Shown: piece by piece, positions 1 to 11,314 of the stretch
Layout of the letters: every line of letters starts with the position of its first letter
Position numbering within the stretch: position 1 is the stretch's first letter
DNA from: an uncultured archaeon
GTDB taxonomy: Archaea; Asgardarchaeota; Lokiarchaeia; Sigyniarchaeales; Promethearchaeaceae
Direction: 5' to 3'
DNA: 11,314 bases
NCBI GenBank assembly: GCA_964426185.1
Contig: CAYRPF010000043.1
Span: 1-11,314, forward strand
The notes under the pieces: generated by a model
Database searches by the model: none
What the model was told of the DNA's origin: nothing
The model's input: only the letters and a program-made list of their open reading frames with translations
Made by a program: the position numbers and the translations under genes

Positions 1-24
1 AGAATAGAAAGAATAGAAAGAATA
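1..24. repeat. 9-bp tandem repeat (AGAATAGAA x ~2.7) at the left window edge
   Basis: agaatagaa|agaatagaa|agaata at 1-24. On the minus strand it reads as a T/C-rich tract just after the aminopeptidase stop, so it may double as a terminator. It may continue beyond the window. Confidence 0.75.
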
Positions 25-27
25 AAT

Positions 28-117
28 CTAGTGGTAGTGGGGTTGAAGACGCTTTCTTAATAAGATAATGCCCACTATCACTGATATACTTAAGAAAGGT
101 GTAGAAAATCCATCTAT
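28..117 (-). other. PGF-CTERM/Loki-CTERM-like protein sorting signal
   Basis: Acidic Thr/Asp linker (THTDDTDDSS), then I-D-G-F (codons at 117-106), a hydrophobic helix (STPFLSISVIVGIILL) and a basic cluster (RKR). This is the tripartite layout of archaeosortase substrates. Confidence 0.6.
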
Positions 118-2025
118 TTTTAATTGTTGGGAAGAATCATCAGTATCATCTGTGTGTGTTGGAATATACTGTATGGAAAGCTCGTTAAAATACTTATATT
201 GTTCTCCATCAGATTGTTCTGCTAAACCTAATTCACCATAGTATAAACCGAGTTTTTCAATCTTTCCATTAAAATTTAGCGAAAAATGAGAAGTTCCATT
301 AACAGTTATTGGGATTATTTCTAAAATTTCATAAGTATTACTGAAAAAAACCACCGAAATATTCTGAACATACTCATACTCATTTAAATTTTCATTTGCA
401 TCTATGATGCTAAAATTGAGTAAGTTATTAATCTGATCATATATGACATTTTCGTATTCGTATTCGGGCAGATAGTCGTTATTATACCAGCTATTAAAAA
501 ACCAAGATAAATCCTTTTCTGCAGCAATTTCAAATGCTGTTTGCATATCATTCAACCAAGCGATTTGAAATTTCATACTATCAAAGAATTGCTGTAATCC
601 TGTAAAGAATGTATCATTCCCAAGATATTGCCTAAGTTTTTCCAAAATCACTGGAGCTTCGTCGTAAGCCAAATCCCAATAAGATTCTCCCGCAGTATAT
701 ACCGATTGGTTGAGTCGCTGTGAAGTATAATCTCCATAAACATAATTGAATTTTCTGGTGGAAGTAACCTCTTTATAAAAGGTAAGATATCCTTGATCGG
801 GATAGACGGTATTCATGTAAAAATCTTCCATCCAACATGCCCAACCTTCATCTAAAAAGCCCGCATCAACTTCATCATTTCCAACCAAATGATAAAACCA
901 CTGATGCGCGGTCTCATGAGCAATAATTAATCTTAACATTCTTATTGGATCTTGATATAATGATGCGGATTCAGTAATGTAAACTTGACATGGATGCTCC
1001 ATTCCACCATAATGAGTGTATTCTTCTACCACATTAAACGATGGATAAGGATACATGCCGACGCTATATGAATATAATCTAACTGCACCGACTGCTGTTT
1101 CCAAAGCAATCCCTGCCCATAAATTCGATTCTTTGGGAAGAAAATAAGTGGAAATATTTGTTTCTTGATACATTGTACTTTCCACTTGAAAATAGCGGGA
1201 AGCCGAGAAAGTGATTTCACGCACAGGATAAATAGGGTCGAAGTACCTCACAATTTCACTTCCATTCACTTCGTTATGTGTTAAAGCTCCTGTAGCCGCG
1301 ACTACAAAGCCAAAAGGGGTTTGAACAGCCAGTTTATAAAAACCCATATCTGTATAGAATGGATCTCCAATATTCAAATATGGATCGAGATTCCAGCCAT
1401 CTTTTTCATCCCAAACACATGGCATTGGATAAGCAACGGCAAATTTTACAATGCGAGATTGGGAGTCATCATAGCCTGAATCGCTACATCTGTCAATACC
1501 TCCATCGGGTAAAGTTGTGATAAAATGAATAGAGAAAGAATCAGTAGAATTTTGGTTTAATTCAGTTGGTAGATCTATCCAAAGCAGTTGGTTGGAAACA
1601 TCAACAGAGAAATTATAGGATTCCTTTCCATTTGATATATTTTTTACCGATTGAATCTGAATAGAGCCCGCCCGAGATTCAAAATCCATCCCAAAAACAA
1701 ACAAATGAAATGGTATAGAAGAAAATACAATAGGATCGGCATTGTAGTAGGTTATATTCATGATACCTTCTACTTGTGAGGTGGTTTCATGAAATCTTAA
1801 CCAAATGGAATAATTTGATAGTTGGGAAAAATCCACATTCTTAACAGCATTAGATGCTATGATTCCTTTAGTCTCTTCAGATAATTCTGATAAAAGAAGA
1901 TTTGGATTGTGATTAGATTCAAAAGGAAAGATAAAAGAAGATTTGGATATAATTATCATAACTGTAAGCAAAATCATACTCAAACGAGTTTTATATGAAA
2001 TCATAATTGATAGTCTAATGATCAC
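28..2025 (-). CDS. M1 family zinc aminopeptidase, secreted and C-terminally membrane-anchored
   Basis: GGMEH (GAMEN-type exopeptidase motif) and HETAH-x18-E (HETAHQWFYHLVGNDEVDAGFLDEG) zinc motif; downstream 'LAYDEAPVILEKLRQYLG' matches the M1 Tyr region. N-terminal signal-like segment KTRLSMILLTVMIII. C-terminal IDGF + hydrophobic helix + RKR. The track start is a GTG at 2025; the ATG at 2004 (MISYK...) is a plausible alternative. Confidence 0.9.
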   Translation of the reverse strand: MIIRLSIMISYKTRLSMILLTVMIIISKSSFIFPFESNHNPNLLLSELSEETKGIIASNAVKNVDFSQLSNYSIWLRFHETTSQVEGIMNITYYNADPIVFSSIPFHLFVFGMDFESRAGSIQIQSVKNISNGKESYNFSVDVSNQLLWIDLPTELNQNSTDSFSIHFITTLPDGGIDRCSDSGYDDSQSRIVKFAVAYPMPCVWDEKDGWNLDPYLNIGDPFYTDMGFYKLAVQTPFGFVVAATGALTHNEVNGSEIVRYFDPIYPVREITFSASRYFQVESTMYQETNISTYFLPKESNLWAGIALETAVGAVRLYSYSVGMYPYPSFNVVEEYTHYGGMEHPCQVYITESASLYQDPIRMLRLIIAHETAHQWFYHLVGNDEVDAGFLDEGWACWMEDFYMNTVYPDQGYLTFYKEVTSTRKFNYVYGDYTSQRLNQSVYTAGESYWDLAYDEAPVILEKLRQYLGNDTFFTGLQQFFDSMKFQIAWLNDMQTAFEIAAEKDLSWFFNSWYNNDYLPEYEYENVIYDQINNLLNFSIIDANENLNEYEYVQNISVVFFSNTYEILEIIPITVNGTSHFSLNFNGKIEKLGLYYGELGLAEQSDGEQYKYFNELSIQYIPTHTDDTDDSSQQLKIDGFSTPFLSISVIVGIILLRKRLQPHYH

Positions 2026-2180
2026 TTAAATATTTAAAATTGAAGTATAATAAAATAACAAGTAAAAATTCGATTGAGCAAAAGTATTCAACCAGCAAAT
2101 TTTTACGATGGTGTTTGTAATATTTAAAACAACCATCAGTCACTATTTTTTAATCAAACAACTGCGGGCGTATTGAAGTT

Positions 2181-3371
2181 ATGAATGAAATGAACACAAA
2201 CTGGATTATCATAGTTGACTGCACGGAAAATATGAAAAAAACAGATTTCCGCCCCAGTAGATTTCATGTTGCATTAAAAGGCGTTCAAAAATTTATTCAA
2301 ATGAAATTCAAACTCTTTCCAGAAGAATTTCTAAGTATTTATATGTTTAGTAATAAAACTCAAATTTTAGCTCATTTAAGTCGCAATTCTCAAGATATTT
2401 TAAAGCAGTTAATGTCTCCTAAGTTTGTTCGTAACCAAGTTCCAGAAGGAAACGGAGAAGAATTGTTTTTTGCACTACAGAATGCAGTAGATTCCATAAG
2501 AAATCAAATAAAATTAATCGGAGGGCAAAAAAGCCGCATTATCATTATTTCTGGTTTACAAAAAATTTCATTTACACAAGAATTTAAAAATTTAATTGAA
2601 ATCATGCAGGAATTAAACATTGTAGTTGATATATTTATCCTTTCTAATAATTCTACCAATGAAATTGCAATTACCTCTCAATTTACTCCTTTTTTTAATA
2701 AGTTACATGGAAATCTCAGAATTGAAACATCTAAGCGAGATTTTTTTGACCATTTAATTTCTTATGCTAAAAGAAGTGATATGTTGGTCAATGCTCATCC
2801 ATTGCAAAGAACTGAAGGAGAAGCTACCAATGAATTAGTTGAAATTGCACAAGATTTACGAAAACCCACTGCAGAAGAAATTACTAATTTAAAAGATCCT
2901 TTAAGCATGATGCGGTGCCAAATCTGCTTTTCTAAAAAATCACCCATTGATCACAAGCATTTGAAAACAACTGGACGTTTTTGCCCTCTTTGTGGTATAC
3001 CAATGCATTTATCATGTGCAGGAATGTGGACGGATAAGACGGAAGAAGGAGCTAACTTGTTTCGTTGTCCTTATTGCTATACTCTCTTGAAAATTCCGAT
3101 GTATATCTTAAAAGGAATCAGAAGTCGGAAGTTTTTGGTGTCTGAAGAAGATAAAGAGAAATTTACGGTTAAAATGATTAGGGTAAAAAAAATTCCTCCG
3201 CAGATGGAAGATATGGATTGTGCCTACTGTCAACGTCCAATTATTGATACGAATCAAGTTAAGAAGATTTACAAGTGTTCTCATTGTAATGCATTTTATC
3301 ATGATGATTGTTTGAGTAAAATGTATAAGAAATCGAAAATCTGTGAGTGTTGTGGTAGAAAAATAATATGA
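2181..3371 (+). CDS. VWA-domain protein (Ssl1/p44- or Rpn10-like N-terminus) with two C-terminal C4HC3 RING/PHD-like zinc fingers
   Basis: N-terminus IIIVDCTENMKKTDFRPSRF resembles the first strand/MIDAS region of Ssl1/p44 and Rpn10 VWA domains; 'SRIIIISG' is a further VWA strand. Finger 1 (2916-3077): CQIC...CPLC-x4-H-x2-C...CPYC. Finger 2 (3219-3353): CAYC...CSHC-x4-H-x2-C...CECC. Confidence 0.8.
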   Translation: MNEMNTNWIIIVDCTENMKKTDFRPSRFHVALKGVQKFIQMKFKLFPEEFLSIYMFSNKTQILAHLSRNSQDILKQLMSPKFVRNQVPEGNGEELFFALQNAVDSIRNQIKLIGGQKSRIIIISGLQKISFTQEFKNLIEIMQELNIVVDIFILSNNSTNEIAITSQFTPFFNKLHGNLRIETSKRDFFDHLISYAKRSDMLVNAHPLQRTEGEATNELVEIAQDLRKPTAEEITNLKDPLSMMRCQICFSKKSPIDHKHLKTTGRFCPLCGIPMHLSCAGMWTDKTEEGANLFRCPYCYTLLKIPMYILKGIRSRKFLVSEEDKEKFTVKMIRVKKIPPQMEDMDCAYCQRPIIDTNQVKKIYKCSHCNAFYHDDCLSKMYKKSKICECCGRKII

Positions 3372-3429
3372 AGATTTTTTTTGTTACTTAAATCCAAAAA
3401 TTTGAAAATTAAGCCTCAATACTAGTGTT

Positions 3430-5514
3430 ATGACCGATAAAAAAAGAAAATGGGTAATTACATCTGCTTGGCCTTACGTTAATGCAATCCCACATTTAGG
3501 TAATTTGATAGGTTCAGTTCTTTCAGGTGATGTTTTTGCTCGTTATTGTCGCTTGAAAGGAGATCAAGTTTTATATGTATCGGGTTCAGATGTCCATGGA
3601 ACTCCAGTTGCTGTGTCCGCTATAGAAGAAAAAGTAACACCCGAAGAGTTGGCATATAAAAATCACCAAACAATTAAAAAACTCTTTGAAAAATGGGAAA
3701 TTTCCTATGATAATTATACCCAAACACATAACCCTGTCCATATTAAGTTTACTCAAGATTTTTATCGCCAAGTAGAGAAAAATGGATTCGTCTCGACAAA
3801 GACGCAAGAAGTATTCTACTGTGAACATGATAATCTTTACTTACCTGATAGATTCGTCGTGGGAATATGCCCATATTGTGGTTCTGAATATGCTCGAGGT
3901 GATCAATGCGATACTTGTGGAAAACTTCTGGAACCTGAAGACTTAATAAATCCAAAATGCAAACATTGCCATAAAACCCCAGTTAAACGTGAAACCACGC
4001 ATTGGTATTTAGATTTTAATAAATGTGAAGATGGAATTCGTAAATTTGTTGAAAATAATAAATATATTCCTGCTAATGCACGAACAATGTCGTTAAACTT
4101 TTTAAAAGAAGGATTGCCAAGCCGGGCGATTACGCGTGATTTAGAATGGGGGATTCCTGCACCATTCAAAGGAGCGGAAAATAAAAGCATCTATGTGTGG
4201 TTTGAAGCCGTTTTGGGATATATTTCTGCAGTTAAGGAATGGGCGGAAAAAATTAAGGAAAATCCTTCCTTATTTGATGAATTTTGGCATGATCCTAATA
4301 TGCAATCTGTCTATTTTATTGGTAAAGACAATATTATCTTTCATTTAATCATATTTCCTGGGTTGTTGGTTGCATATAATAAAGAATTACCTCAAGAAAA
4401 GCAATTTACCATGCCGTATAATGTTTCTTCCACCGAATTTCTTAACTATGAAAATGACAAATTCTCAAAATCGAGAAAAGTAGGAATTTGGATTGATGAA
4501 GCCTTAGAACTTGCTCCCGTGGAGTATTGGCGCTATTCTCTTCTTCGAAATCGACCAGAAAAACAAGATACCAATTTTCTCTGGAATCAATTTGAAAATG
4601 ATATCATGGAGCTGAACGATATTATCGGCAATTTCATTCACCGAACCCTTTCATTTATTTCAAAAAGATTCGAAGGTAAAGTTCCAGAAAAACCTACTGA
4701 TGAAGAACTCGATGAAGAAGATAAAAAGCTGATTGTAATTATTCATTCTGCCCCAGAACGTGTTGGAAATTTATTAGAACATTTTCATCTCAAAGAAGCT
4801 TTAAATGAAATTATTAAAATAGCCAGAAATGGAAATGTATATATAAACAATAAAGCACCTTGGAAATTAATGAAAACTGATAAGAAAAGAGCAGGTTATA
4901 CCTTTTATTTAGCTGCACAAATGGTGAGAACTCTAGCAGTATTATTGACTCCATATATTCCTGGGGTAAGTAAGAAAATTTTTCTTGCGTTAGGTAATAA
5001 CGAATCGCCAGATAAAATTAGATGGGAATCTGCAGCAGAATTGCGGGTTCAACCTCATACCAAAATTCCTCTGGCTAAACCATTATTTCAGAAATTAGAT
5101 GTGAAAGAATTGCAAAAAAAATTGGATTTACTTCACGGAATTGTACCAAATGAAGATACCGAACTTAAAAAGCAATCTTCATCTACTCTAATTTCTTATG
5201 ATGATTTTATTAAATTGGATTTGCGAACTGGAACGATAGTAAATGCAGAAAAAGTTCCCGAAACTTCTCATTTATTGAAACTACAAGTTGATACTGGAGA
5301 AAAATCTCTGCGAACAATTGTCGCAGGTGTAGGAAAAACATATTCTGCAGAAGAATTGGTCGGTACTCAAATAATAGTATTGGTAAATTTAGAACCTAAG
5401 ACCATTAAAGGAATTACCTCTCATGGCATGCTGTTGGCCGTGGATTTGAAAAAGAAGGGTACAACATTATTACGTCCCGAAAAATCAATTCCAAATGGTT
5501 CCAAAATTCGATGA
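3430..5514 (+). CDS. metG: Methionine--tRNA ligase (archaeal type, with C-terminal Trbp111-like tRNA-binding domain)
   Basis: ITSAWPYVNAIPHLGN (HIGH motif), GSDVHG, zinc knuckles (CPYC...CDTC...CKHC), ITRDLEWGI, YVWFEA, FIGKDNIIFH, KFSKS (KMSKS motif), and a C-terminal OB domain (ISYDDFIKLDLRTG...NLEPKTIKGITSHGMLL). Confidence 0.98.
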   Translation: MTDKKRKWVITSAWPYVNAIPHLGNLIGSVLSGDVFARYCRLKGDQVLYVSGSDVHGTPVAVSAIEEKVTPEELAYKNHQTIKKLFEKWEISYDNYTQTHNPVHIKFTQDFYRQVEKNGFVSTKTQEVFYCEHDNLYLPDRFVVGICPYCGSEYARGDQCDTCGKLLEPEDLINPKCKHCHKTPVKRETTHWYLDFNKCEDGIRKFVENNKYIPANARTMSLNFLKEGLPSRAITRDLEWGIPAPFKGAENKSIYVWFEAVLGYISAVKEWAEKIKENPSLFDEFWHDPNMQSVYFIGKDNIIFHLIIFPGLLVAYNKELPQEKQFTMPYNVSSTEFLNYENDKFSKSRKVGIWIDEALELAPVEYWRYSLLRNRPEKQDTNFLWNQFENDIMELNDIIGNFIHRTLSFISKRFEGKVPEKPTDEELDEEDKKLIVIIHSAPERVGNLLEHFHLKEALNEIIKIARNGNVYINNKAPWKLMKTDKKRAGYTFYLAAQMVRTLAVLLTPYIPGVSKKIFLALGNNESPDKIRWESAAELRVQPHTKIPLAKPLFQKLDVKELQKKLDLLHGIVPNEDTELKKQSSSTLISYDDFIKLDLRTGTIVNAEKVPETSHLLKLQVDTGEKSLRTIVAGVGKTYSAEELVGTQIIVLVNLEPKTIKGITSHGMLLAVDLKKKGTTLLRPEKSIPNGSKIR

Positions 5515-5672
5515 ATGAAATTTTCTGTAATTATTCTTTTTTCATCTCCCTTGATCTTTTACTGTTCAATTAATAGATTTTTAACACCCGTATAAAATTC
5601 AAATCCACATAAATTGTTTTGATATATCTTGAAATAAAAAAATTGATAAATAATTAGAACTATAAATCAATC

Positions 5673-5680
5673 GGAGGCGA
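5673..5680 (+). promoter_or_regulatory. Shine-Dalgarno sequence GGAGGCGA for the selenoprotein gene
   Basis: GGAGGCGA (one mismatch to the archaeal consensus GGAGGTGA) ends 4 nt before the ATG at 5685. A GC-rich motif like this stands out in the very AT-rich intergenic region. Confidence 0.85.
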
Positions 5681-5684
5681 TCCG

Positions 5685-6008
5685 ATGGAAATCTCGGAGC
5701 AAGCCAAGGCATTTTTAGAACGGCACAAGAATGATTTTGAAAATCCAGTACTTTTAGTTTACTATGCACGATCTAAAGGTTGATGAGGAATTCAACGGAA
5801 AGTTAAGGTGAAGTATCAAGAATCGCCTTTTAAATCAGATAATCCTGATAATAATTTGCATTGGGGAAAAGCAAATTTTATCCCATATCCAGTAGAAGGA
5901 TGTCCCGTATCAGTATATCTCGATACGGAAATGCAAACTTTGGTTGAAAAGGCGATGATTGATATGGAAAAAATGGGAATGTACAAATTCCTTACCTTGA
6001 CCTATTAA
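5685..6008 (+). CDS. HesB-like (seleno)protein, 107 aa, with two adjacent UGA codons predicted as Sec33-Sec34 (motif KG-U-U-G)
   Basis: ATG 5685 is in frame with the track ORF at 5808 (123 nt = 41 codons); the only interruptions are TGA TGA at 5781-5786. Translation: MEISEQAKAFLERHKNDFENPVLLVYYARSKGUUGIQRKVKVKYQESPFKSDNPDNNLHWGKANFIPYPVEGCPVSVYLDTEMQTLVEKAMIDMEKMGMYKFLTLTY. The N-terminal 'M.IS..AK.FL', a beta strand leading to a Gly-flanked Sec/Cys, and C-terminal 'VYLD......E...ID' recall HesB/IscA-fold proteins and the methanococcal HesB-like selenoprotein. Strong SD upstream, SECIS downstream. Confidence 0.85.
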
Positions 6009-6013
6009 CCAAC

Positions 6014-6108
6014 TCAAGAAAAAGCATTACTAAATGATAAAATCTCTCAAAGTGAAGGAGTTTTTTGATAGAAATGGCAAAAATTCGTGCTTTTTCTTGA
6101 ATTTTTTC
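6014..6108 (+). terminator. Perfect 13-bp inverted repeat enclosing the SECIS, followed by oligo-T (probable transcript 3' end)
   Basis: TCAAGAAAAAGCA (6014-6026) is the exact reverse complement of TGCTTTTTCTTGA (6088-6100), followed by ATTTTTTC (6101-6108). Confidence 0.6.
6024..6078 (+). ncRNA. Eukaryote-type (form 1) SECIS element in the 3' UTR
   Basis: A6034-TGAT(6035-6038) opposite TGAT(6066-6069) gives the non-Watson-Crick quartet with tandem G.A pairs. Helix II: AAAA(6039-42)/TTTT(6062-65), a U.U mismatch, then CTCT(6044-47)/GGAG(6057-60). AAA at 6049-6051 lies 11 nt after ATGA, in the apical loop. Helix I: CATT-CT(6025-31)/AG-AATG(6070-76). Confidence 0.85.
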
Positions 6109-6133
6109 ATTATCTATTTAAATTCAATTTTTT

Positions 6134-6181
6134 AGAAAGTTTATTTATAAGGAATTTCTTTTATTTGAATAGAAAAGAAAT
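6134..6181 (+). promoter_or_regulatory. Possible BRE/TATA promoter plus 9-bp inverted repeat upstream of the 6203 gene
   Basis: Purine-rich AGAAAG, then TTTATTTATAA (TATA-like TTTATAA at 6144-6150). ATTTCTTTT (6154-6162) and AAAAGAAAT (6173-6181) form an inverted repeat. GAGGG at 6191-6195 precedes the ATG at 6203. The AT-rich background limits confidence. Confidence 0.35.
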
Positions 6182-6202
6182 CTATTTTTTGAGGGAAAAA
6201 TC

Positions 6203-6988
6203 ATGGTGCATTATAAGGATCCTGTTTTACATCATAACGACTCAAATGAGGAAAATGATAACAACTTCCAAGAATCGGATGATTCGATTGTAATTCCCGA
6301 GTGGACAATAGATGAAGACGGGATTCCATATTGTACAAAACAGACAGATTATCAAAAAATCATTGAGTCAAATTTAAAAAAACGTTTTCCTCATGAATTT
6401 GAAAAAATGCTTCACTGCCATCATTGTGAGCATTATCGTCAAGATGATTGTTATTTTCCCAAATCAGAAATAGATAAGATTGAAAATGATAGAAATTCTT
6501 TACGTATTCGCTGTCAACTTTGCGGAGCAAAAATCGATCGGTTATTTTCAATTTTGATGAGTCTTTATTATAAAGAGAAATTTGGAGTTAACATGCCAGT
6601 TATATGTTGTTCGTGTTATAATTCTTTGGAAAACAACACATATGAGCGAAATTCCAAACGTCGTATGATTTTATTTGTAATTAGTTTCTTAACTTCGTTT
6701 TACTTTCTTAGCACCTATCTTATTTCACTATTTCAGTTTCAATGGCTGGGATTTCTTTTCTTTTTGCTCCCATTTACATTTTGGGGATATATTTCAATAC
6801 GGGATTTAAAAAATATATACTATCTCCACAAAGGGCGCAAATATTATAAACAAATCACGCAAGCTTCTGAGGTAGAAGTTGAATCTCCTGAAGATCTCGG
6901 TCTTGAACGAAGAGAAGCATTATTAGATAAAGATGATAAAGAAAAACCAGATGGAGGTGCTTTTCATTCTCCAGGATATGAATATTGA
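6203..6988 (+). CDS. Hypothetical membrane protein with Cys-rich, putatively metal-binding N-terminal domain and two TM helices
   Basis: 261-aa ORF with SD-like GAGGG. Motifs: PYC, CHHCEHY-x4-C, CQLC and CCSC. Two hydrophobic segments (MILFVISFLTSFYFLSTYLISLF; WLGFLFFLLPFTFWGYISI). Both termini are acidic. Confidence 0.8.
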   Translation: MVHYKDPVLHHNDSNEENDNNFQESDDSIVIPEWTIDEDGIPYCTKQTDYQKIIESNLKKRFPHEFEKMLHCHHCEHYRQDDCYFPKSEIDKIENDRNSLRIRCQLCGAKIDRLFSILMSLYYKEKFGVNMPVICCSCYNSLENNTYERNSKRRMILFVISFLTSFYFLSTYLISLFQFQWLGFLFFLLPFTFWGYISIRDLKNIYYLHKGRKYYKQITQASEVEVESPEDLGLERREALLDKDDKEKPDGGAFHSPGYEY

Positions 6989-7001
6989 AAAGAAGAAAAA
7001 A
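6989..7001 (-). terminator. Oligo-T archaeal terminator after the UPF0147 gene (13-bp gap between convergent genes)
   Basis: The minus strand reads TTTTTTCTTCTTT immediately after the TAA stop at 7004-7002. Confidence 0.5.
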
Positions 7002-7301
7002 TTATACGTCGTGAATTTGTTCCAGTAAACTTAAAATCTGATAGATTTGAGTTCTGCTATGTAGTGGGCAGTTTAAATCTTGAGCAATATCTTCTAACAA
7101 AGAAATGCAATTACTGGCACATACGATTGGAGTATTCTTTTTGTTATCAATGTTCACTATTAAATCTAAAGATTCTTGGGCAATTTTTCGAATATTGCGT
7201 GGAACTCCATTATCTTCATTAATCATATTCAATAAAAATTTGACTTGTTCAAAATTTTCTTCATTTTCTGCAATCTTTTCACTTTTCGTTTTTCGTGGCA
7301 T
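7002..7301 (-). CDS. UPF0147 family archaeal protein
   Basis: Signatures 'I.ED.GVPRNIRK.A' and 'IS.LE.I..D.N.P.H.RT.I.QILS.LE'. The start is placed at ATG 7301 (MPRKTK, 99 aa) because GAGATGA precedes it; the ORF track extends to 7337. Confidence 0.85.
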   Translation of the reverse strand: MPRKTKSEKIAENEENFEQVKFLLNMINEDNGVPRNIRKIAQESLDLIVNIDNKKNTPIVCASNCISLLEDIAQDLNCPLHSRTQIYQILSLLEQIHDV

Positions 7302-7445
7302 AATAATCATCTCATTATGTGTAAAAATTTTCCTCATGCTTCATTGGTAACCTATAACCAGTTGAGAAGAAGATAAAAGAAATATAATTCACGTATTTAA
7401 ATACGACATATTTAAAAAAATTTTGCAATATCGCACTTCAATTCT

Positions 7446-9284
7446 TTATGAGATTGATTTTTTTATTAAATCAGCCCATTTCTGATATAAACGTTGCACA
7501 ATATAAAAACTGATTTTAGGCTGACGGTGTGCATCCACAATTCCTTTGTTATTTTGTTCTTGTGGTTTATCGCGAAAACCATTATACGGGCTTAAACGAA
7601 AATCGTTAAAATGCCCAATACAAGCGCCAGCAATGTAATCTTTCTTTATAATCTCAGAAATATAAGTTCGTAGGAGATCGTACTGAAAATTCTCACTCCA
7701 ATGAGCTATAGCAAATGATTTAAATCCAGTAATTGCTTCAGCACCAAATTCCAATAGAACCAATGGTTTTAATTTTCCATCTATATGTTTTTCTTTAATA
7801 GATTCCCAAATTCTATCAATAAATTTGGCAGACTCTGCCGGAGATTTATTATATTTTCCATACCAACCTGAATCAGTTCGGGTACAAACAAAATCCACTA
7901 AATCAAATGTGAGGTCTTCTAATGGAGTTTTGGAAACCAAAGAATGAGTTCTAAATGGATCTAATTCTCGAGACAAAGCGAGCAATTCTTCCATAAATTC
8001 TCTTCCTTCTTTAGAATTAGTCTCACAGTCACTTCCAACCAACCATGTAATTATAGAACAGTGATTTTTATCTCGATGAATCATTTCCCATAACTGTTTT
8101 TGAGCGATTGTTAAGTATTCTTTTGAATAATCTTTTGTAGTGAATCCACATACAGGAATTTGCTCTAATATCAGAAATCCCATTTCATCAGCCAATTCTA
8201 AGAGTGATTCATGAGGAGGAAAATAGGTAGTTCTAATGCAATTAATATTTGCATCTTTCATGATATTTAGATCATTGTAAATTAAACGTGGATTCAGAGA
8301 AGAACCTACATCTGGATGATCATCAAACCGATTAACTCCACGTAGGATTATACGAGAATTATTCAAATAGAAATTATGCTCATTGACATAGAATTCACGA
8401 AAACCCCATCTTAGTGTTTCTCTATCAATTTCCATTCGATTTTTTTCTTCAATTAGCTGGAAAACTACATCATATAAATATGGATTTTCTGGGGTCCATA
8501 AAGTTGGATTCTCTAAAGGAATAATGGCATTGAAAAATTCACTATTTTTATTCTTCATGTTAATGTTCAATTCATGAGTAGTGTGCATAAAATTGTCCTT
8601 TACTGAAACTAAAACACTTCCCTTAAATGGTCTGGCATAAGACCTATAGTCTTTTATAAAAAAGCGAACTTTTAGTTTTGCTTGGCAATTTTGATAACCT
8701 TGACCTAAAGGACGATCAAATTCAATGCTATTAGTTAATTTAATATCATCAAGGCATACCATGGAAGTTTGCTTTAAATAAACTTGGCGGTAAATCCCTC
8801 CATAATTCATCCAAGGAGGATTTAATCCCCAAGGTAGTCGGTTTGGATAATAACGATTATCAACTTGGATGATTAGTAAGTTTTCCTTGCCAAATTTCAC
8901 AAATTGATTGATTTCAAACCAGAATTTCGTATAACCACCTTCATGAAAACCTACGTAATGACCATTTATCCAAACTGAAGTTAGATAATTAGAACCATTG
9001 AGAACTAACGTAATCTTCTTTCCATTCCCTGAACCCCATTTAAATGGAAGGAAAAAGGAAGTTTCATACCATCCTGTTCCAAAATGATAAAAATTCTTTC
9101 TGTTTTGATAATAAGACCAAGTTGAGGGAACGTATACTTTTAATCGTTGATCATCAAAGGGTAGACCTGTCTCAAACCATTTATTTATGATTCCAGGATC
9201 TTCTTTGTCGGTATCATCTTGCGAAAGGCCAAAGTGAAATTTCCAAAAGGTGTTTGAAAGCAAGATCCGTTTTAAATCCGCCAT
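7446..9284 (-). CDS. Glycoside hydrolase family 2 (beta-glucuronidase-like) protein with atypical active-site motifs
   Basis: GH2 sugar-binding domain (VPSTW, GTGWYE, VWINGHYVGFHEGGY, NYGGIYRQV), LWTPENPYLY, GFREF, LRGVNR, LADEMG, EMIHRDKNHCSIITW, nucleophile region LLEFGAEA, and NNKG (NxKG glucuronidase motif). SD-like AGGCGA upstream. Confidence 0.9.
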   Translation of the reverse strand: MADLKRILLSNTFWKFHFGLSQDDTDKEDPGIINKWFETGLPFDDQRLKVYVPSTWSYYQNRKNFYHFGTGWYETSFFLPFKWGSGNGKKITLVLNGSNYLTSVWINGHYVGFHEGGYTKFWFEINQFVKFGKENLLIIQVDNRYYPNRLPWGLNPPWMNYGGIYRQVYLKQTSMVCLDDIKLTNSIEFDRPLGQGYQNCQAKLKVRFFIKDYRSYARPFKGSVLVSVKDNFMHTTHELNINMKNKNSEFFNAIIPLENPTLWTPENPYLYDVVFQLIEEKNRMEIDRETLRWGFREFYVNEHNFYLNNSRIILRGVNRFDDHPDVGSSLNPRLIYNDLNIMKDANINCIRTTYFPPHESLLELADEMGFLILEQIPVCGFTTKDYSKEYLTIAQKQLWEMIHRDKNHCSIITWLVGSDCETNSKEGREFMEELLALSRELDPFRTHSLVSKTPLEDLTFDLVDFVCTRTDSGWYGKYNKSPAESAKFIDRIWESIKEKHIDGKLKPLVLLEFGAEAITGFKSFAIAHWSENFQYDLLRTYISEIIKKDYIAGACIGHFNDFRLSPYNGFRDKPQEQNNKGIVDAHRQPKISFYIVQRLYQKWADLIKKSIS

Positions 9285-9288
9285 GCTA

Positions 9289-9319
9289 TCGCCTTAAAAT
9301 TTCACATACTTTATAAAAA
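9289..9319 (-). promoter_or_regulatory. Putative TATA box and SD for the GH2 gene
   Basis: Minus-strand TTTTATAAA about 26-35 nt upstream of ATG 9284, and AGGCGA at 9294-9289. Confidence 0.4.
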
Positions 9320-9361
9320 TTAATGCTACTAAAAAATGTTAAACGAAATTTGGAAAATAGA

Positions 9362-10333
9362 TCATTTCACTGGAAGTTCATATTCATGACATGTGTAGTT
9401 TTCCTTTAACTTTACTTGCCCATTTATAAATTGAGTGGCAAATTGCCCGCAATTGGAACCTATAGCATTCTCTTCCCATTCTCCGATGCTTAATATGCAC
9501 TCATAACCATATTCTCGAAAAGAATCCCGAACTTTTAGATTGTTTAACAGATTTTGAGTGATTTTACTTTTCAATTGATTTTCTTTTGCACGGTTAGTAG
9601 GATTAATTGGAGTAATTTTAATTAAGTATTTATCTGGATTAAAGAAAGGTAAAAGTTTTGCGGGTTGAAGATCAACAGATTCTTCTACAGCGAAATTTAG
9701 TGTAATTTTTCGATCACCTTTTTCAAACCAACGATCCCCAAAGGTGGAAATTTGTGCAAAATTCCAAATAGGAACTGGGATAAGAGATTGTCGCATTTTT
9801 TGATCGGTAGAATGTATTGAAAATTGTAATTGGAAATGGCCGTTTCGATAAAATTTTTGCTTGATTTCTAATAAATGTTCAAAAAATGACCCCGCATTTT
9901 TAGGAGCAATTGTACTAATGCATGGTATTAATCCAGGAGCTTTGATTAGATGAGGGAGGTCTTTTAATAATTCTAATACATTATCGTTTAAACTGGGTTC
10001 TCCCATTCGGGCAAATTGGATTTTGAATTTTTTAACAGGAATTTCTAAATTCGGATAATATTGAGTGATCATATGCTCTAATTGAGCCCACATTCCTTCT
10101 TTAGAAACTTTACCATGATAATATTCTCCTGCATCGCACATTAAACATCCGATAGGGCAACCAAATAAGGTAGAAAGGATTAGAACCCATTTTTCTTCTC
10201 TTGAATGGGGCGGTTGTATACTATGAACAAATTCTAGAATTTCCCCACCATATCGCCCAATATATAAAGTAGCCAAATTCTGTTTCCCAAACTTTCGAAG
10301 TATTTCAATTTCCAACAATTTCACCTTTATCAA
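9362..10333 (-). CDS. Radical SAM protein, RlmN/Cfr-like (class A methyltransferase-related), short form
   Basis: CxxxCxxC (GCPIGCLMC, first Cys at 10159-10157), RMGEP motif, LQFSIHS, and C-terminal SNCGQ (Cys at 9451-9449). It lacks the RlmN N-terminal helical domain. Start is TTG 10333 or GTG 10324. Confidence 0.85.
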   Translation of the reverse strand: MIKVKLLEIEILRKFGKQNLATLYIGRYGGEILEFVHSIQPPHSREEKWVLILSTLFGCPIGCLMCDAGEYYHGKVSKEGMWAQLEHMITQYYPNLEIPVKKFKIQFARMGEPSLNDNVLELLKDLPHLIKAPGLIPCISTIAPKNAGSFFEHLLEIKQKFYRNGHFQLQFSIHSTDQKMRQSLIPVPIWNFAQISTFGDRWFEKGDRKITLNFAVEESVDLQPAKLLPFFNPDKYLIKITPINPTNRAKENQLKSKITQNLLNNLKVRDSFREYGYECILSIGEWEENAIGSNCGQFATQFINGQVKLKENYTCHEYELPVK

Positions 10334-10399
10334 TTATAACAGATACCGATTCTATAAGATATTAATGTGAATAATTAAGAAAAACCTCACTATATTTTG

Positions 10400-11311
10400 T
10401 TATTTTATTAACTCGCTTTTGCACAATTCCATAGCTGTTTTAATTCCGTCTCCCATTGATAGGCTTATTTGCCTGTATTGAGGATGAACGAGGTCTCCAA
10501 TTAAAAAAAGCCTACGAGATTGGAATAATTCGTTTTTTTGTGTTTTTAAATATTTTTCAATTAAAAACGAGTTGGGGATTCGACCGATAGCCACTATAAT
10601 TAAATCAACCTCAAAATAGGGTAGATGTTTTGCAGATGAAGAAAAAATTCGAATTTGTTCATTCTTCAAGGATATATTGGAAATTGGAAAATTTAACTGG
10701 ATTTTGATGTTGTTCTTTTCTCCAACTAAGTTTTGTAAACGTGAAATTGCTCTTATTTTAGAAGATCTTACTAAAATTATAACTTCATTTCCTTTCTGGA
10801 CCAAATTTAAGGCATAATCAAACGCGACATCACCGCTACCAATTATTGCGATTCTCTTTTGAGTTGAATTTATATTTTTTATTTCGTAATAAAGCTTTTG
10901 CTGCTTAAATCCCTCTGATTCACCCGCTACATCTAGTTTTTTAGGCTGCGAGCCAGTTGCAAGTACTAAGTAGGATGATTGGAACTTTCCATATCTGGTT
11001 TCTATTTGAAATAAATTTTGCAAAAAATCTATACGATTTACTCGCAATTGTTTAAAATTGAGACGGTAATTTTGGATAATTTCAGTAAATATTTCACATA
11101 ATTTTTTCCCAGATATTCCTTGAGGAAATGTAATCAGATTTTCAATTAGAAAAGCATTTTTTACACAACCACCAATTTCTTCACCAATTAGTAAATAAGA
11201 GGTTCCTTCACGTTGTAGTTGTAAAGCAGTAGATATTCCTGCCGGTCCGGCTCCAATGATTATTATTGAATGATAATTCTCCCTATTTTTCATATTCTCC
11301 CTATTTTTCAT
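10400..11311 (-). CDS. NAD(P)/FAD-dependent oxidoreductase, thioredoxin reductase (TrxB)-like fold, lacking the redox CxxC
   Basis: IIIIGAGPAG (FAD), IGG, LATGS, IAIIGSGDVAFD (NAD(P)H), AIGRIPN and LIGD...YRQ...GDG. The 5' end lies in an 18-bp tandem repeat at the window edge, so the true start is uncertain (ATG 11293, 11311 or further upstream). Confidence 0.88.
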   Translation of the reverse strand: MKNRENMKNRENYHSIIIIGAGPAGISTALQLQREGTSYLLIGEEIGGCVKNAFLIENLITFPQGISGKKLCEIFTEIIQNYRLNFKQLRVNRIDFLQNLFQIETRYGKFQSSYLVLATGSQPKKLDVAGESEGFKQQKLYYEIKNINSTQKRIAIIGSGDVAFDYALNLVQKGNEVIILVRSSKIRAISRLQNLVGEKNNIKIQLNFPISNISLKNEQIRIFSSSAKHLPYFEVDLIIVAIGRIPNSFLIEKYLKTQKNELFQSRRLFLIGDLVHPQYRQISLSMGDGIKTAMELCKSELIK

Positions 11312-11314
11312 ATT
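11276..11314. repeat. 18-bp perfect tandem repeat ATTCTCCCTATTTTTCAT (2 copies plus the first 3 nt of a possible third), encoding MKNREN repeats
   Basis: Copies at 11276-11293 and 11294-11311, then ATT at 11312-11314 where the window ends. Confidence 0.9.

Follow-up and report, generated by a model that had tools for sequence, protein, structure and literature searches.

A probable lokiSECIS element behind a gene with two adjacent UGA codons in an Asgard archaeon

Selenocysteine insertion sequences (SECIS) of Asgard archaea have been described before. The lokiSECIS elements lie close behind the coding sequence and consist of AUGA, a 9-bp stem, an 11-nt loop (A is favoured first and an ultraconserved last G usually follows an A) and GA, rarely AA, after the stem; archaeal, bacterial and eukaryotic SECIS tools miss them, and no SBP2 was found in Lokiarchaeota (Mariotti 2016, PMC4989117). 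The Asgard type I eSECIS-like model has a stem of 7-15 bp with at most two mismatches and a loop of 8-20 nt (Huang 2024, PMC11227280). Here we analyse a stretch of 11,314 nt (hereafter the window; assembly GCA_964426185.1, contig CAYRPF010000043.1, positions 1 to 11,314) from an uncultured archaeon of the Promethearchaeaceae, and in particular an element at 6014-6107 in the 3' untranslated region (UTR) of a short gene (5685-6008) that carries two directly adjacent in-frame UGA codons. The seven Asgard selenoprotein families listed in Huang 2024 (PMC11227280) do not include this gene family, and a 2026 review names no families exclusive to Asgard other than Prx-like, AhpF N-terminal-like and DsbA-like proteins (PMC13188914).

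We consider 6014-6107 to be, with a probability of roughly 0.8, a functional 3'-UTR SECIS of the gene at 5685-6008 and one of the lokiSECIS (type I eSECIS-like) elements. Such elements have been described before (Mariotti 2016; Huang 2024). What is new is the gene family that it serves, the adjacency of the two UGAs and the structural details of its kink-turn (K-turn) and basal helix. The parts of gene and element are as follows.

5685-6008, + strand: gene of the CC/Se-motif (HesB/IscA-like) family, 107 codons, open over 5685-6005 when TGA is read as selenocysteine (Sec, U); TAA stop at 6006-6008
5781-5786, + strand: UGA-UGA, in frame and in tandem (motif G-U-U-G), with the AUGA core 248 nt further downstream; both TGAs kept in 8/8 orthologs
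6014-6027, + strand: predicted basal helix (helix I), 5' arm, 14 bp; minimum free energy (MFE) fold of 6009-6110 and longest flank-to-flank stem
6030-6032, + strand: predicted C-stem, 5' strand CUA, 3 bp, pairing with UAG 6069-6071; the core-flanking pair covaries in 18/18 elements
6033-6037, + strand: putative K-turn bulge A-A-U (6033-6035) and G-A (6036-6037) of the AUGA core; from the sequence and the invariance of AUGA in 18 elements
6038-6046, + strand: helix II, 5' arm, with U6038 in a predicted non-Watson-Crick U.U above the G.A pairs; 7/8 pairs beyond the first position
6047-6057, + strand: apical loop UCAAAGUGAAG, 11 nt, with AAA at loop positions 3-5 and AG at its end; from the sequence and the 18-element comparison
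6058-6066, + strand: helix II, 3' arm, with the T6 run 6061-6066 inside it; same basis
6067-6071, + strand: core GA (6067-6068) and 3' strand of the C-stem, UAG (6069-6071); same basis
6072-6086, + strand: internal loop on the 3' side, 15 nt, which may hold a small hairpin; constrained fold
6087-6100, + strand: predicted basal helix, 3' arm; MFE fold and shuffle test
6102-6107, + strand: oligo-U (T6), likely archaeal transcription terminator; T runs in the 3' UTRs of the family

The motif that was initially annotated is borne out by direct reading of the sequence. ATGA occupies 6034-6037, T 6038, AAA 6049-6051 and TGAT 6066-6069, so that exactly 11 nt (6038-6048) separate ATGA from AAA; the element proper starts 25 nt past the TAA stop codon. 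In the lokiSECIS register, the nine stem positions 6038-6046 face 6058-6066 and form seven standard pairs and two U.U mismatches (6038.6066 and 6043.6061). The initial annotation had described a helix II of about nine positions with one U.U and one G.U, and these are indeed present when 6039-6047 are paired with 6057-6065 (four A-U, U.U, C-G, U-A, C-G, U-G).

Comparison with relatives carries most of the argument. It covered 18 elements, namely those of eight orthologs, seven paralogs and three other genes of the window's genome, HdrA-VhuD among them. Each ortholog has an AUGA-stem-loop-GA/AA element between about 10 nt before and 35 nt after its annotated stop. AUGA is invariant and AAA occupies loop positions 3-5 in 18/18 elements, including those of the three other genes of the genome, and the last loop nucleotide is G in 14/18. 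The recurrence of these motifs behind UGA-containing orthologs, which had been proposed as a check, was thus found, together with covarying stems. The first stem position is non-standard in 14 of the 18, and U6038.U6066 should therefore be regarded as a feature of the element and not as a defect. Stem positions 2-9, in turn, are paired through many different sequences. A structure-aware alignment of the 14 elements without that of the window has 88.9% of its cells paired and 42 cells changed on both sides; its covariation score was reached by none of 500 shuffles, and slid registers were 21-52% paired. A MAFFT alignment of all 15 relatives placed gaps inside the 3' arm, and equal-length subsets and anchor-based counting were used instead. 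Between the window and Candidatus Harpocratesius repetitus, the stem changes from UAAAAUCUC/GAGUUUUUU to UGGUGCAUC/GAUGCAUCG, including four doubly compensated pairs, and AUGA, the loop AAAGU, the final G and GA all stay in place. Since synonymous sites of the two genes are saturated (pS 0.72), a neutral UTR would be expected to be scrambled over the same distance.

One ortholog (genome G016; L011:145-230 (-), L082:700-790) is of interest with regard to spacing. Its true stop is itself a UGA, located about 30 nt ahead of the SECIS core, with additional UGAs in frame over the interval that separates the two. Recoding of a UGA would thus seem to require a certain minimum distance to the SECIS, as it is known to do in eukaryotes.

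The gene in front of the element evolves as a coding sequence on both sides of the UGAs. The family nearest to its product is NCBIfam NF041239 ('CC/Se motif family (seleno)protein'), at 24.7 bits and thus short of the cut-off of 40; a match to Pfam Fe-S_biosyn is weak. When 161 genomes of the class were searched in six frames, orthologs (35-70% identity) were recovered from seven more genomes, all from the same archaeal family and all with two in-frame TGAs, and also a paralogous group with a single TGA (G-U-C-G). In a profile search of 400 genomes of the phylum, the gene family was found in 24, including 12/13 of the window's archaeal family, and almost all of its members have an in-frame TGA. 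In comparison with the H. repetitus ortholog (dN 0.19), the parts in front of and behind the UGAs each have a dN/dS of about 0.1 or less. Some family members have true Cys in the same two columns (GCCG, SCCG, TCCG). A protein homology search with the window gene returned only the window's own 66-aa fragment, and a metagenome scan for related loci gave a single locus, a near-copy of L011. The public metagenome gene calls (P0003-P0011) include full-length family members with W at the Sec positions (GWCG, GWWG; the latter in P0005, P0009 and P0010), where gene callers evidently read TGA as Trp.

The genome appears equipped to decode these codons. The assembly (3.26 Mb, 92% complete) encodes a tRNA-Sec (51 bits, above the Rfam cut-off; called SeC with anticodon tca by ARAGORN), SepSecS (345 bits), SelB/EFSec (248 bits, above cut-off) and a SelD that itself has one in-frame TGA; L7Ae-domain open reading frames (ORFs) number only two. 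Genetic code Table 11 gives normal full-length genes throughout the window, and MetRS, directly upstream of the selenoprotein gene and full length by Pfam, ends at a TGA stop (5512-5514). Sec decoding of the two UGAs, as initially proposed, is therefore in line with their conservation in seven other genomes, with the low dN/dS and with the Sec machinery of the genome. The split gene at 5685-6008 is probably one selenoprotein with two neighbouring Sec residues, and the SECIS adds an independent line of evidence for this.

The window genome belongs to the genus of Ca. H. repetitus. Its MetRS is 81% identical to that of strain FW102, and synteny is conserved, since the orthologous UGA-UGA gene lies inside the same MetRS locus there. 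NCBI taxonomy places Harpocratesius in Promethearchaeaceae, Promethearchaeia (Lokiarchaeia), Asgard. The Asgard origin that had been deduced from the SECIS is thus confirmed independently of it.

A single element seems to serve both UGAs. No second SECIS candidate turned up from 60 nt ahead of the stop codon to 250 nt behind it. In methanogen-type SECIS, a GAA_A bulge separates a G+C-rich lower stem from an upper stem of three G-C pairs. Huang's loose eaSECIS model detected no such element upstream of the terminator (scan of 6006-6200); its single match, at 6164-6195, is situated downstream of the oligo-U runs, and its upper stem is devoid of G-C pairs. There is also no notable bacterial-type hairpin after the UGAs (fold of 5775-5860, z -1.0). 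These scans agree with the initial claim of one SECIS for two UGAs. As to the further suggestion that the locus is a compact model of processive Sec insertion, several UGAs per SECIS are already known from HdrA-VhuD and PrxL.1 of Loki archaea.

The arrangement is not unique within this genome, where no fewer than three genes combine adjacent UGA-UGA with one SECIS. Contig 15:29765-30142 (-) encodes a second paralog of the window gene whose Sec codons are adjacent (Q-U-U-G), and a strong lokiSECIS (ATGA, 8/8 pairs, GA) begins 18 nt past its stop codon. Directly upstream of it lies a Cys-Cys paralog (R-S-C-C-S), so that CC and UU forms stand in tandem. The third case is an unrelated ORF of 192 codons without a Pfam match at contig 42:1988-2563 (+) (L076:947-1522), which has adjacent TGA-TGA (D-A-Q-C-U-U). 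Its strong lokiSECIS (2550-2583, 8/8 pairs) overlaps the last codons, and both TGAs and the sequence after them are conserved in 8/14 genomes of the archaeal family.

The 18 elements also bear on the anatomy of the core. In 18/18, a Watson-Crick pair joins the position two before AUGA to the one that directly follows GA (A-U in 10, G-C in seven, C-G in one), the type being A-U in UU orthologs and G-C in UC paralogs. The alternative quartet register, in which the nucleotide directly before AUGA faces the one after GA, was rejected, since it is paired in only 12/18. The comparison thus supports a core that may be described as a simple K-turn: a C-stem, a 3-nt bulge (N-A-U), tandem G.A/A.G and a non-standard next pair. 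In the window, the C-stem would consist of C6030-G6071, U6031-A6070 and A6032-U6069, and an internal loop of 2 nt (5') and 15 nt (3') separates it from the basal helix.

The length of the basal helix was reached by none of 300 flank shuffles, and its GCA(U)/(G)UGC part is kept in H. repetitus. The short helix I of the initial annotation (GCAUU 6024-6028 with AAUG(G)C 6073-6078) can be drawn, but the 3-bp C-stem and the 14-bp basal helix replace it, being better supported by the MFE fold and the covarying flanking pair; the GCA/UGC register kept in H. repetitus likewise favours the long helix. Most relatives have a drawable helix I near the core, with a 5' loop of 2-6 nt and a 3' loop of 14-28 nt. 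These were read from the sequences, as the conservation of helix I must be, because the longest-stem statistic exceeds shuffles in the window only and not in the A/T-rich flanks of the relatives. A run of T5-T10 follows GA at a distance of 23-60 nt in 14/15 family 3' UTRs. A different hairpin can be drawn in 6066-6117 (+), where 6079-6086 face 6099-6106 across the loop 6087-6098. Its 3' end is in the T6 run, and it is a competitor of the 3' arm of the basal helix. It scores 17.1 bits with R1, one of the covariance models described below, and is not a second SECIS since it lacks AUGA and GA.

Several results weigh against a functional SECIS at this position. In a search of 5600-6250, no Rfam SECIS family matched at E<=10. 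Two covariance models were built without the window element, R1 from seven elements and R2 from 14. R1 scores it at no more than 16.1 bits and R2 at 13.7 (E 0.36, third in the window), which is less than the 18.3 and 15.2 bits of a chance match at 4446-4500 (+), inside the MetRS gene; held-out relatives are recovered by the two models at 19-38 bits. In a genome-wide R2 search in which 150 of 5837 first-look candidates were scored, neither the window nor the VhuD element was listed. The SECIS fold lies 5.5 kcal/mol above the MFE by nearest-neighbour energy, and the element taken alone has no stability beyond that of shuffles (z +0.62), whereas 4/6 relatives folded have z of about -2 to -3 or lower energies. 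Its helix II is the weakest of the 18, with four A-U pairs in a row; the mismatch at stem position 6 occurs in no other of these elements, and loop positions 1-2 (UC) are atypical among them. It is also the only one of 15 family elements checked that has a T5+ run inside the core, and this run (T6, 6061-6066) could end some transcripts early.

Part of this can be put into perspective. The Rfam negative says little, because the same search also misses four strong relatives and Mariotti 2016 reported the same failure. A descriptor composed of ATGA, one free position, a stem of 8 bp that tolerates one mismatch, a loop of 9-13 nt with AAA near its 5' end, and GA/AA does match the window element, while the R1/R2 scores stay at the chance level of the window. 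The covariance-model check that the initial annotation had proposed thus gave a divided answer: there is no Rfam match and our own models do not rise above chance, so that the absence of a hit, named there as adverse, is half of what was found, beside the descriptor match. The descriptor has 49 matches in 6.5 Mb (both strands of the genome) vs 19 in the locally shuffled genome; 17 of the 49 end in GA, and five of these 17 lie just behind in-frame-TGA ORFs or beside family matches. At about 12 background matches per 6.5 Mb, a chance match in the 100 nt after this stop codon has a probability of about 2e-4, a rough figure given that the descriptor was written with the element already in view. 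As regards stability, the helices of the relatives L007 and L011 are weak as well (-5.0 and -4.3 kcal/mol, z -0.2 and -1.1), and the energy models give no credit for G.A pairs or a bound protein. T6+ runs are not absolute terminators, for they occur about once per 1.3 kb inside long ORFs, even though they are 7-fold more frequent in the 150 nt after them (5.4 vs 0.78 per kb; 1241 long ORFs). Inside ORFs, T6+ on the sense strand is about 3-fold rarer than A6+ (0.78 vs 2.25 per kb), and for 54% of long ORFs the next 150 nt include a T6+ run, consistent with oligo-T termination. Sequence alone is insufficient for a call, and the element is therefore called from position, orthology and covariation.

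Could the element be a lokiSECIS in decay, poorly functional or non-functional because of its weak helix II and internal T6, behind a gene that is weakly expressed or close to a pseudogene? The lowest covariance scores of the family (13.7-16.1 vs 19-61 bits) would fit, as would the missing thermodynamic stability of its own, the T5+ run inside the core and the atypical loop positions 1-2. Yet the reading frame is unbroken, and both of the parts that flank the UGAs evolve under strong purifying selection (dN 0.19, dS saturated); every invariant position is retained, and weak helices are seen in L007 and L011 too. Moreover, 7/8 helix pairs survive the many differences from the H. repetitus sequence, with four double compensations, which is not what neutral decay would leave. 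We therefore regard decay as unlikely. A mere terminator or mRNA-stability hairpin, in which AUGA, AAA and GA would occur by chance and the UGAs would be real stops or depend on another read-through signal, might seem attractive given that the 14-bp helix and the T6 run behind it are the most prominent part of the predicted fold and that SECIS-like matches of equal score, such as 4446-4500, arise by chance in the window. However, archaeal termination needs only oligo-T, and the terminators of the relatives do without such a hairpin. The motifs recur at identical spacing, with covarying stems, in 8/8 orthologs and in paralogs, the chance of co-location is about 2e-4, the ORF is conserved in frame past both UGAs, and scans of the UTR, of UGA-proximal hairpins and for methanogen-type elements yielded no other candidate signal. 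This makes a terminator without SECIS function very improbable.

An explanation that would make the SECIS unneeded altogether is that UGA is reassigned (to Trp or Gly, codes 4 or 25) or read through without Sec. The W that public gene callers put at Sec positions (GWWG, GWCG) in several family members could be taken in this sense. Against it stand the TGA stop of the neighbouring MetRS and the full-length genes that Table 11 gives across the window, the restriction of in-frame TGAs to a few families, each with a SECIS behind, the dedicated tRNA-Sec and Sec synthesis genes, and the Cys forms (CC) at the same two columns in relatives. We give reassignment next to no weight.

If 6014-6107 is a lokiSECIS, it might work in the following way. 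The 14-bp basal helix would carry an asymmetric 2/15-nt internal loop, above which the 3-bp C-stem leads into the kink-turn, with its A-A-U bulge, tandem sheared G6036.A6068 and A6037.G6067, and then U6038.U6066. An 8-bp A/U-rich helix II would follow, capped by the 11-nt loop that displays AAA, and the oligo-U right after the basal helix would end the transcript. The kink-turn and the AAA loop could be bound by an L7Ae-type protein or by the archaeal EFSec complex as candidate factors. The bound factor would bring EFSec-GTP-Sec-tRNASec to ribosomes at the UGA 5781-5783 and then at 5784-5786, some 250 nt upstream; both would be read as Sec and give a vicinal G-U-U-G redox motif. It is tempting to speculate that the Asgard SECIS is a plain K-turn read by the ordinary L7Ae of ribosomes and small ribonucleoproteins, ancestral to the eukaryotic SBP2-SECIS system, and that adjacent UGA-UGA is a minimal processive system. 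We propose reading by L7Ae because no SBP2 is known in Lokiarchaeia, because the genome has only two L7Ae-domain proteins and because the K-turn has a covarying flanking pair, but the scenario as a whole remains doubtful.

With a helix of almost nothing but A-U, an internal T6 run and covariance scores at the background, the window element illustrates how much a lokiSECIS that still looks functional can diverge. Consequently, Asgard scans that use models only will miss such elements, and position and orthology are needed in addition. Conversely, the chance match at 4446-4500 (AUGA, an 8-9 bp stem, an A-rich loop start, GA) outscores the real candidate, and caution is therefore advisable with model-only SECIS calls in A/T-rich Asgard genomes. 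The covarying core-flanking pair and the short 5'/long 3' internal loop of most relatives refine the structural model of elements from a lineage where the eukaryotic SECIS is thought to have originated. Elsewhere in the window, the protein encoded at 2181-3371 (+) is 396 aa long and combines an Ssl1-like/VWA domain with a RING/C1-like zinc finger at its C-terminus (PF04056 E 2e-12, PF13519, PF13639), a eukaryote-like architecture of the TFIIH p44/Ssl1 type.

How does the element relate to the known types? The difference from bacterial and methanogen SECIS that had been claimed for it agrees with the scans reported above, which showed no hairpin after the UGAs and no GAA_A element before the terminator. 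The Sec pathway of the window genome, with SepSecS, is of the archaeal/eukaryotic type and not bacterial. That pathway (SepSecS, EFSec) and the 3'-UTR location are shared with the SECIS of Methanococcales and Methanopyrus. Box C/D K-turns have a 3-nt bulge, tandem sheared G.A/A.G and a U.U at the next position, as is predicted for the window element. Unlike box C/D and ribosomal K-turns, which archaeal L7Ae binds, the window element stands in an mRNA 3' UTR and has a conserved AAA loop, and no box C/D family in the Rfam search of 5600-6250 matched in overlap with it.

With eukaryotic SECIS form 1 (RF00031 SECIS_1), the element shares the 3'-UTR location, the AUGA...GA kink-turn core, a helix I below an internal loop and unpaired apical-loop adenines about 11 nt after AUGA. 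It differs in its shorter helix II and in having no RF00031 match at E<=10, and its Watson-Crick flanking pair is more easily reconciled with a simple K-turn (3-nt bulge) than with the U.U of the eukaryotic quartet. The initial assignment to the eukaryotic form 1 is thus right as to the eukaryote-like 3'-UTR type and has to be amended as to the form, which is the shorter-stemmed Asgard one with lokiSECIS features.

The closest match is lokiSECIS, that is, the Asgard type I eSECIS-like element, each published sequence and spacing feature of which is present in the window. The lokiSECIS of HdrA-VhuD and of the two-Sec PrxL.1 also serve several UGAs with one element, as would be the case here. 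The window differs from the described cases in its gene family (CC/Se-motif, HesB-like fold), absent from Huang 2024 and from the 2026 review (PMC13188914), and in the direct adjacency of its two UGAs. Its helix is unusually A/U-rich, with a U.U mismatch and the T6 run, and its loop positions 1-2 are UC rather than purine/A/U. Finally, a basal helix of 14 bp, continuing into the terminator, appears to close the whole element at its base.

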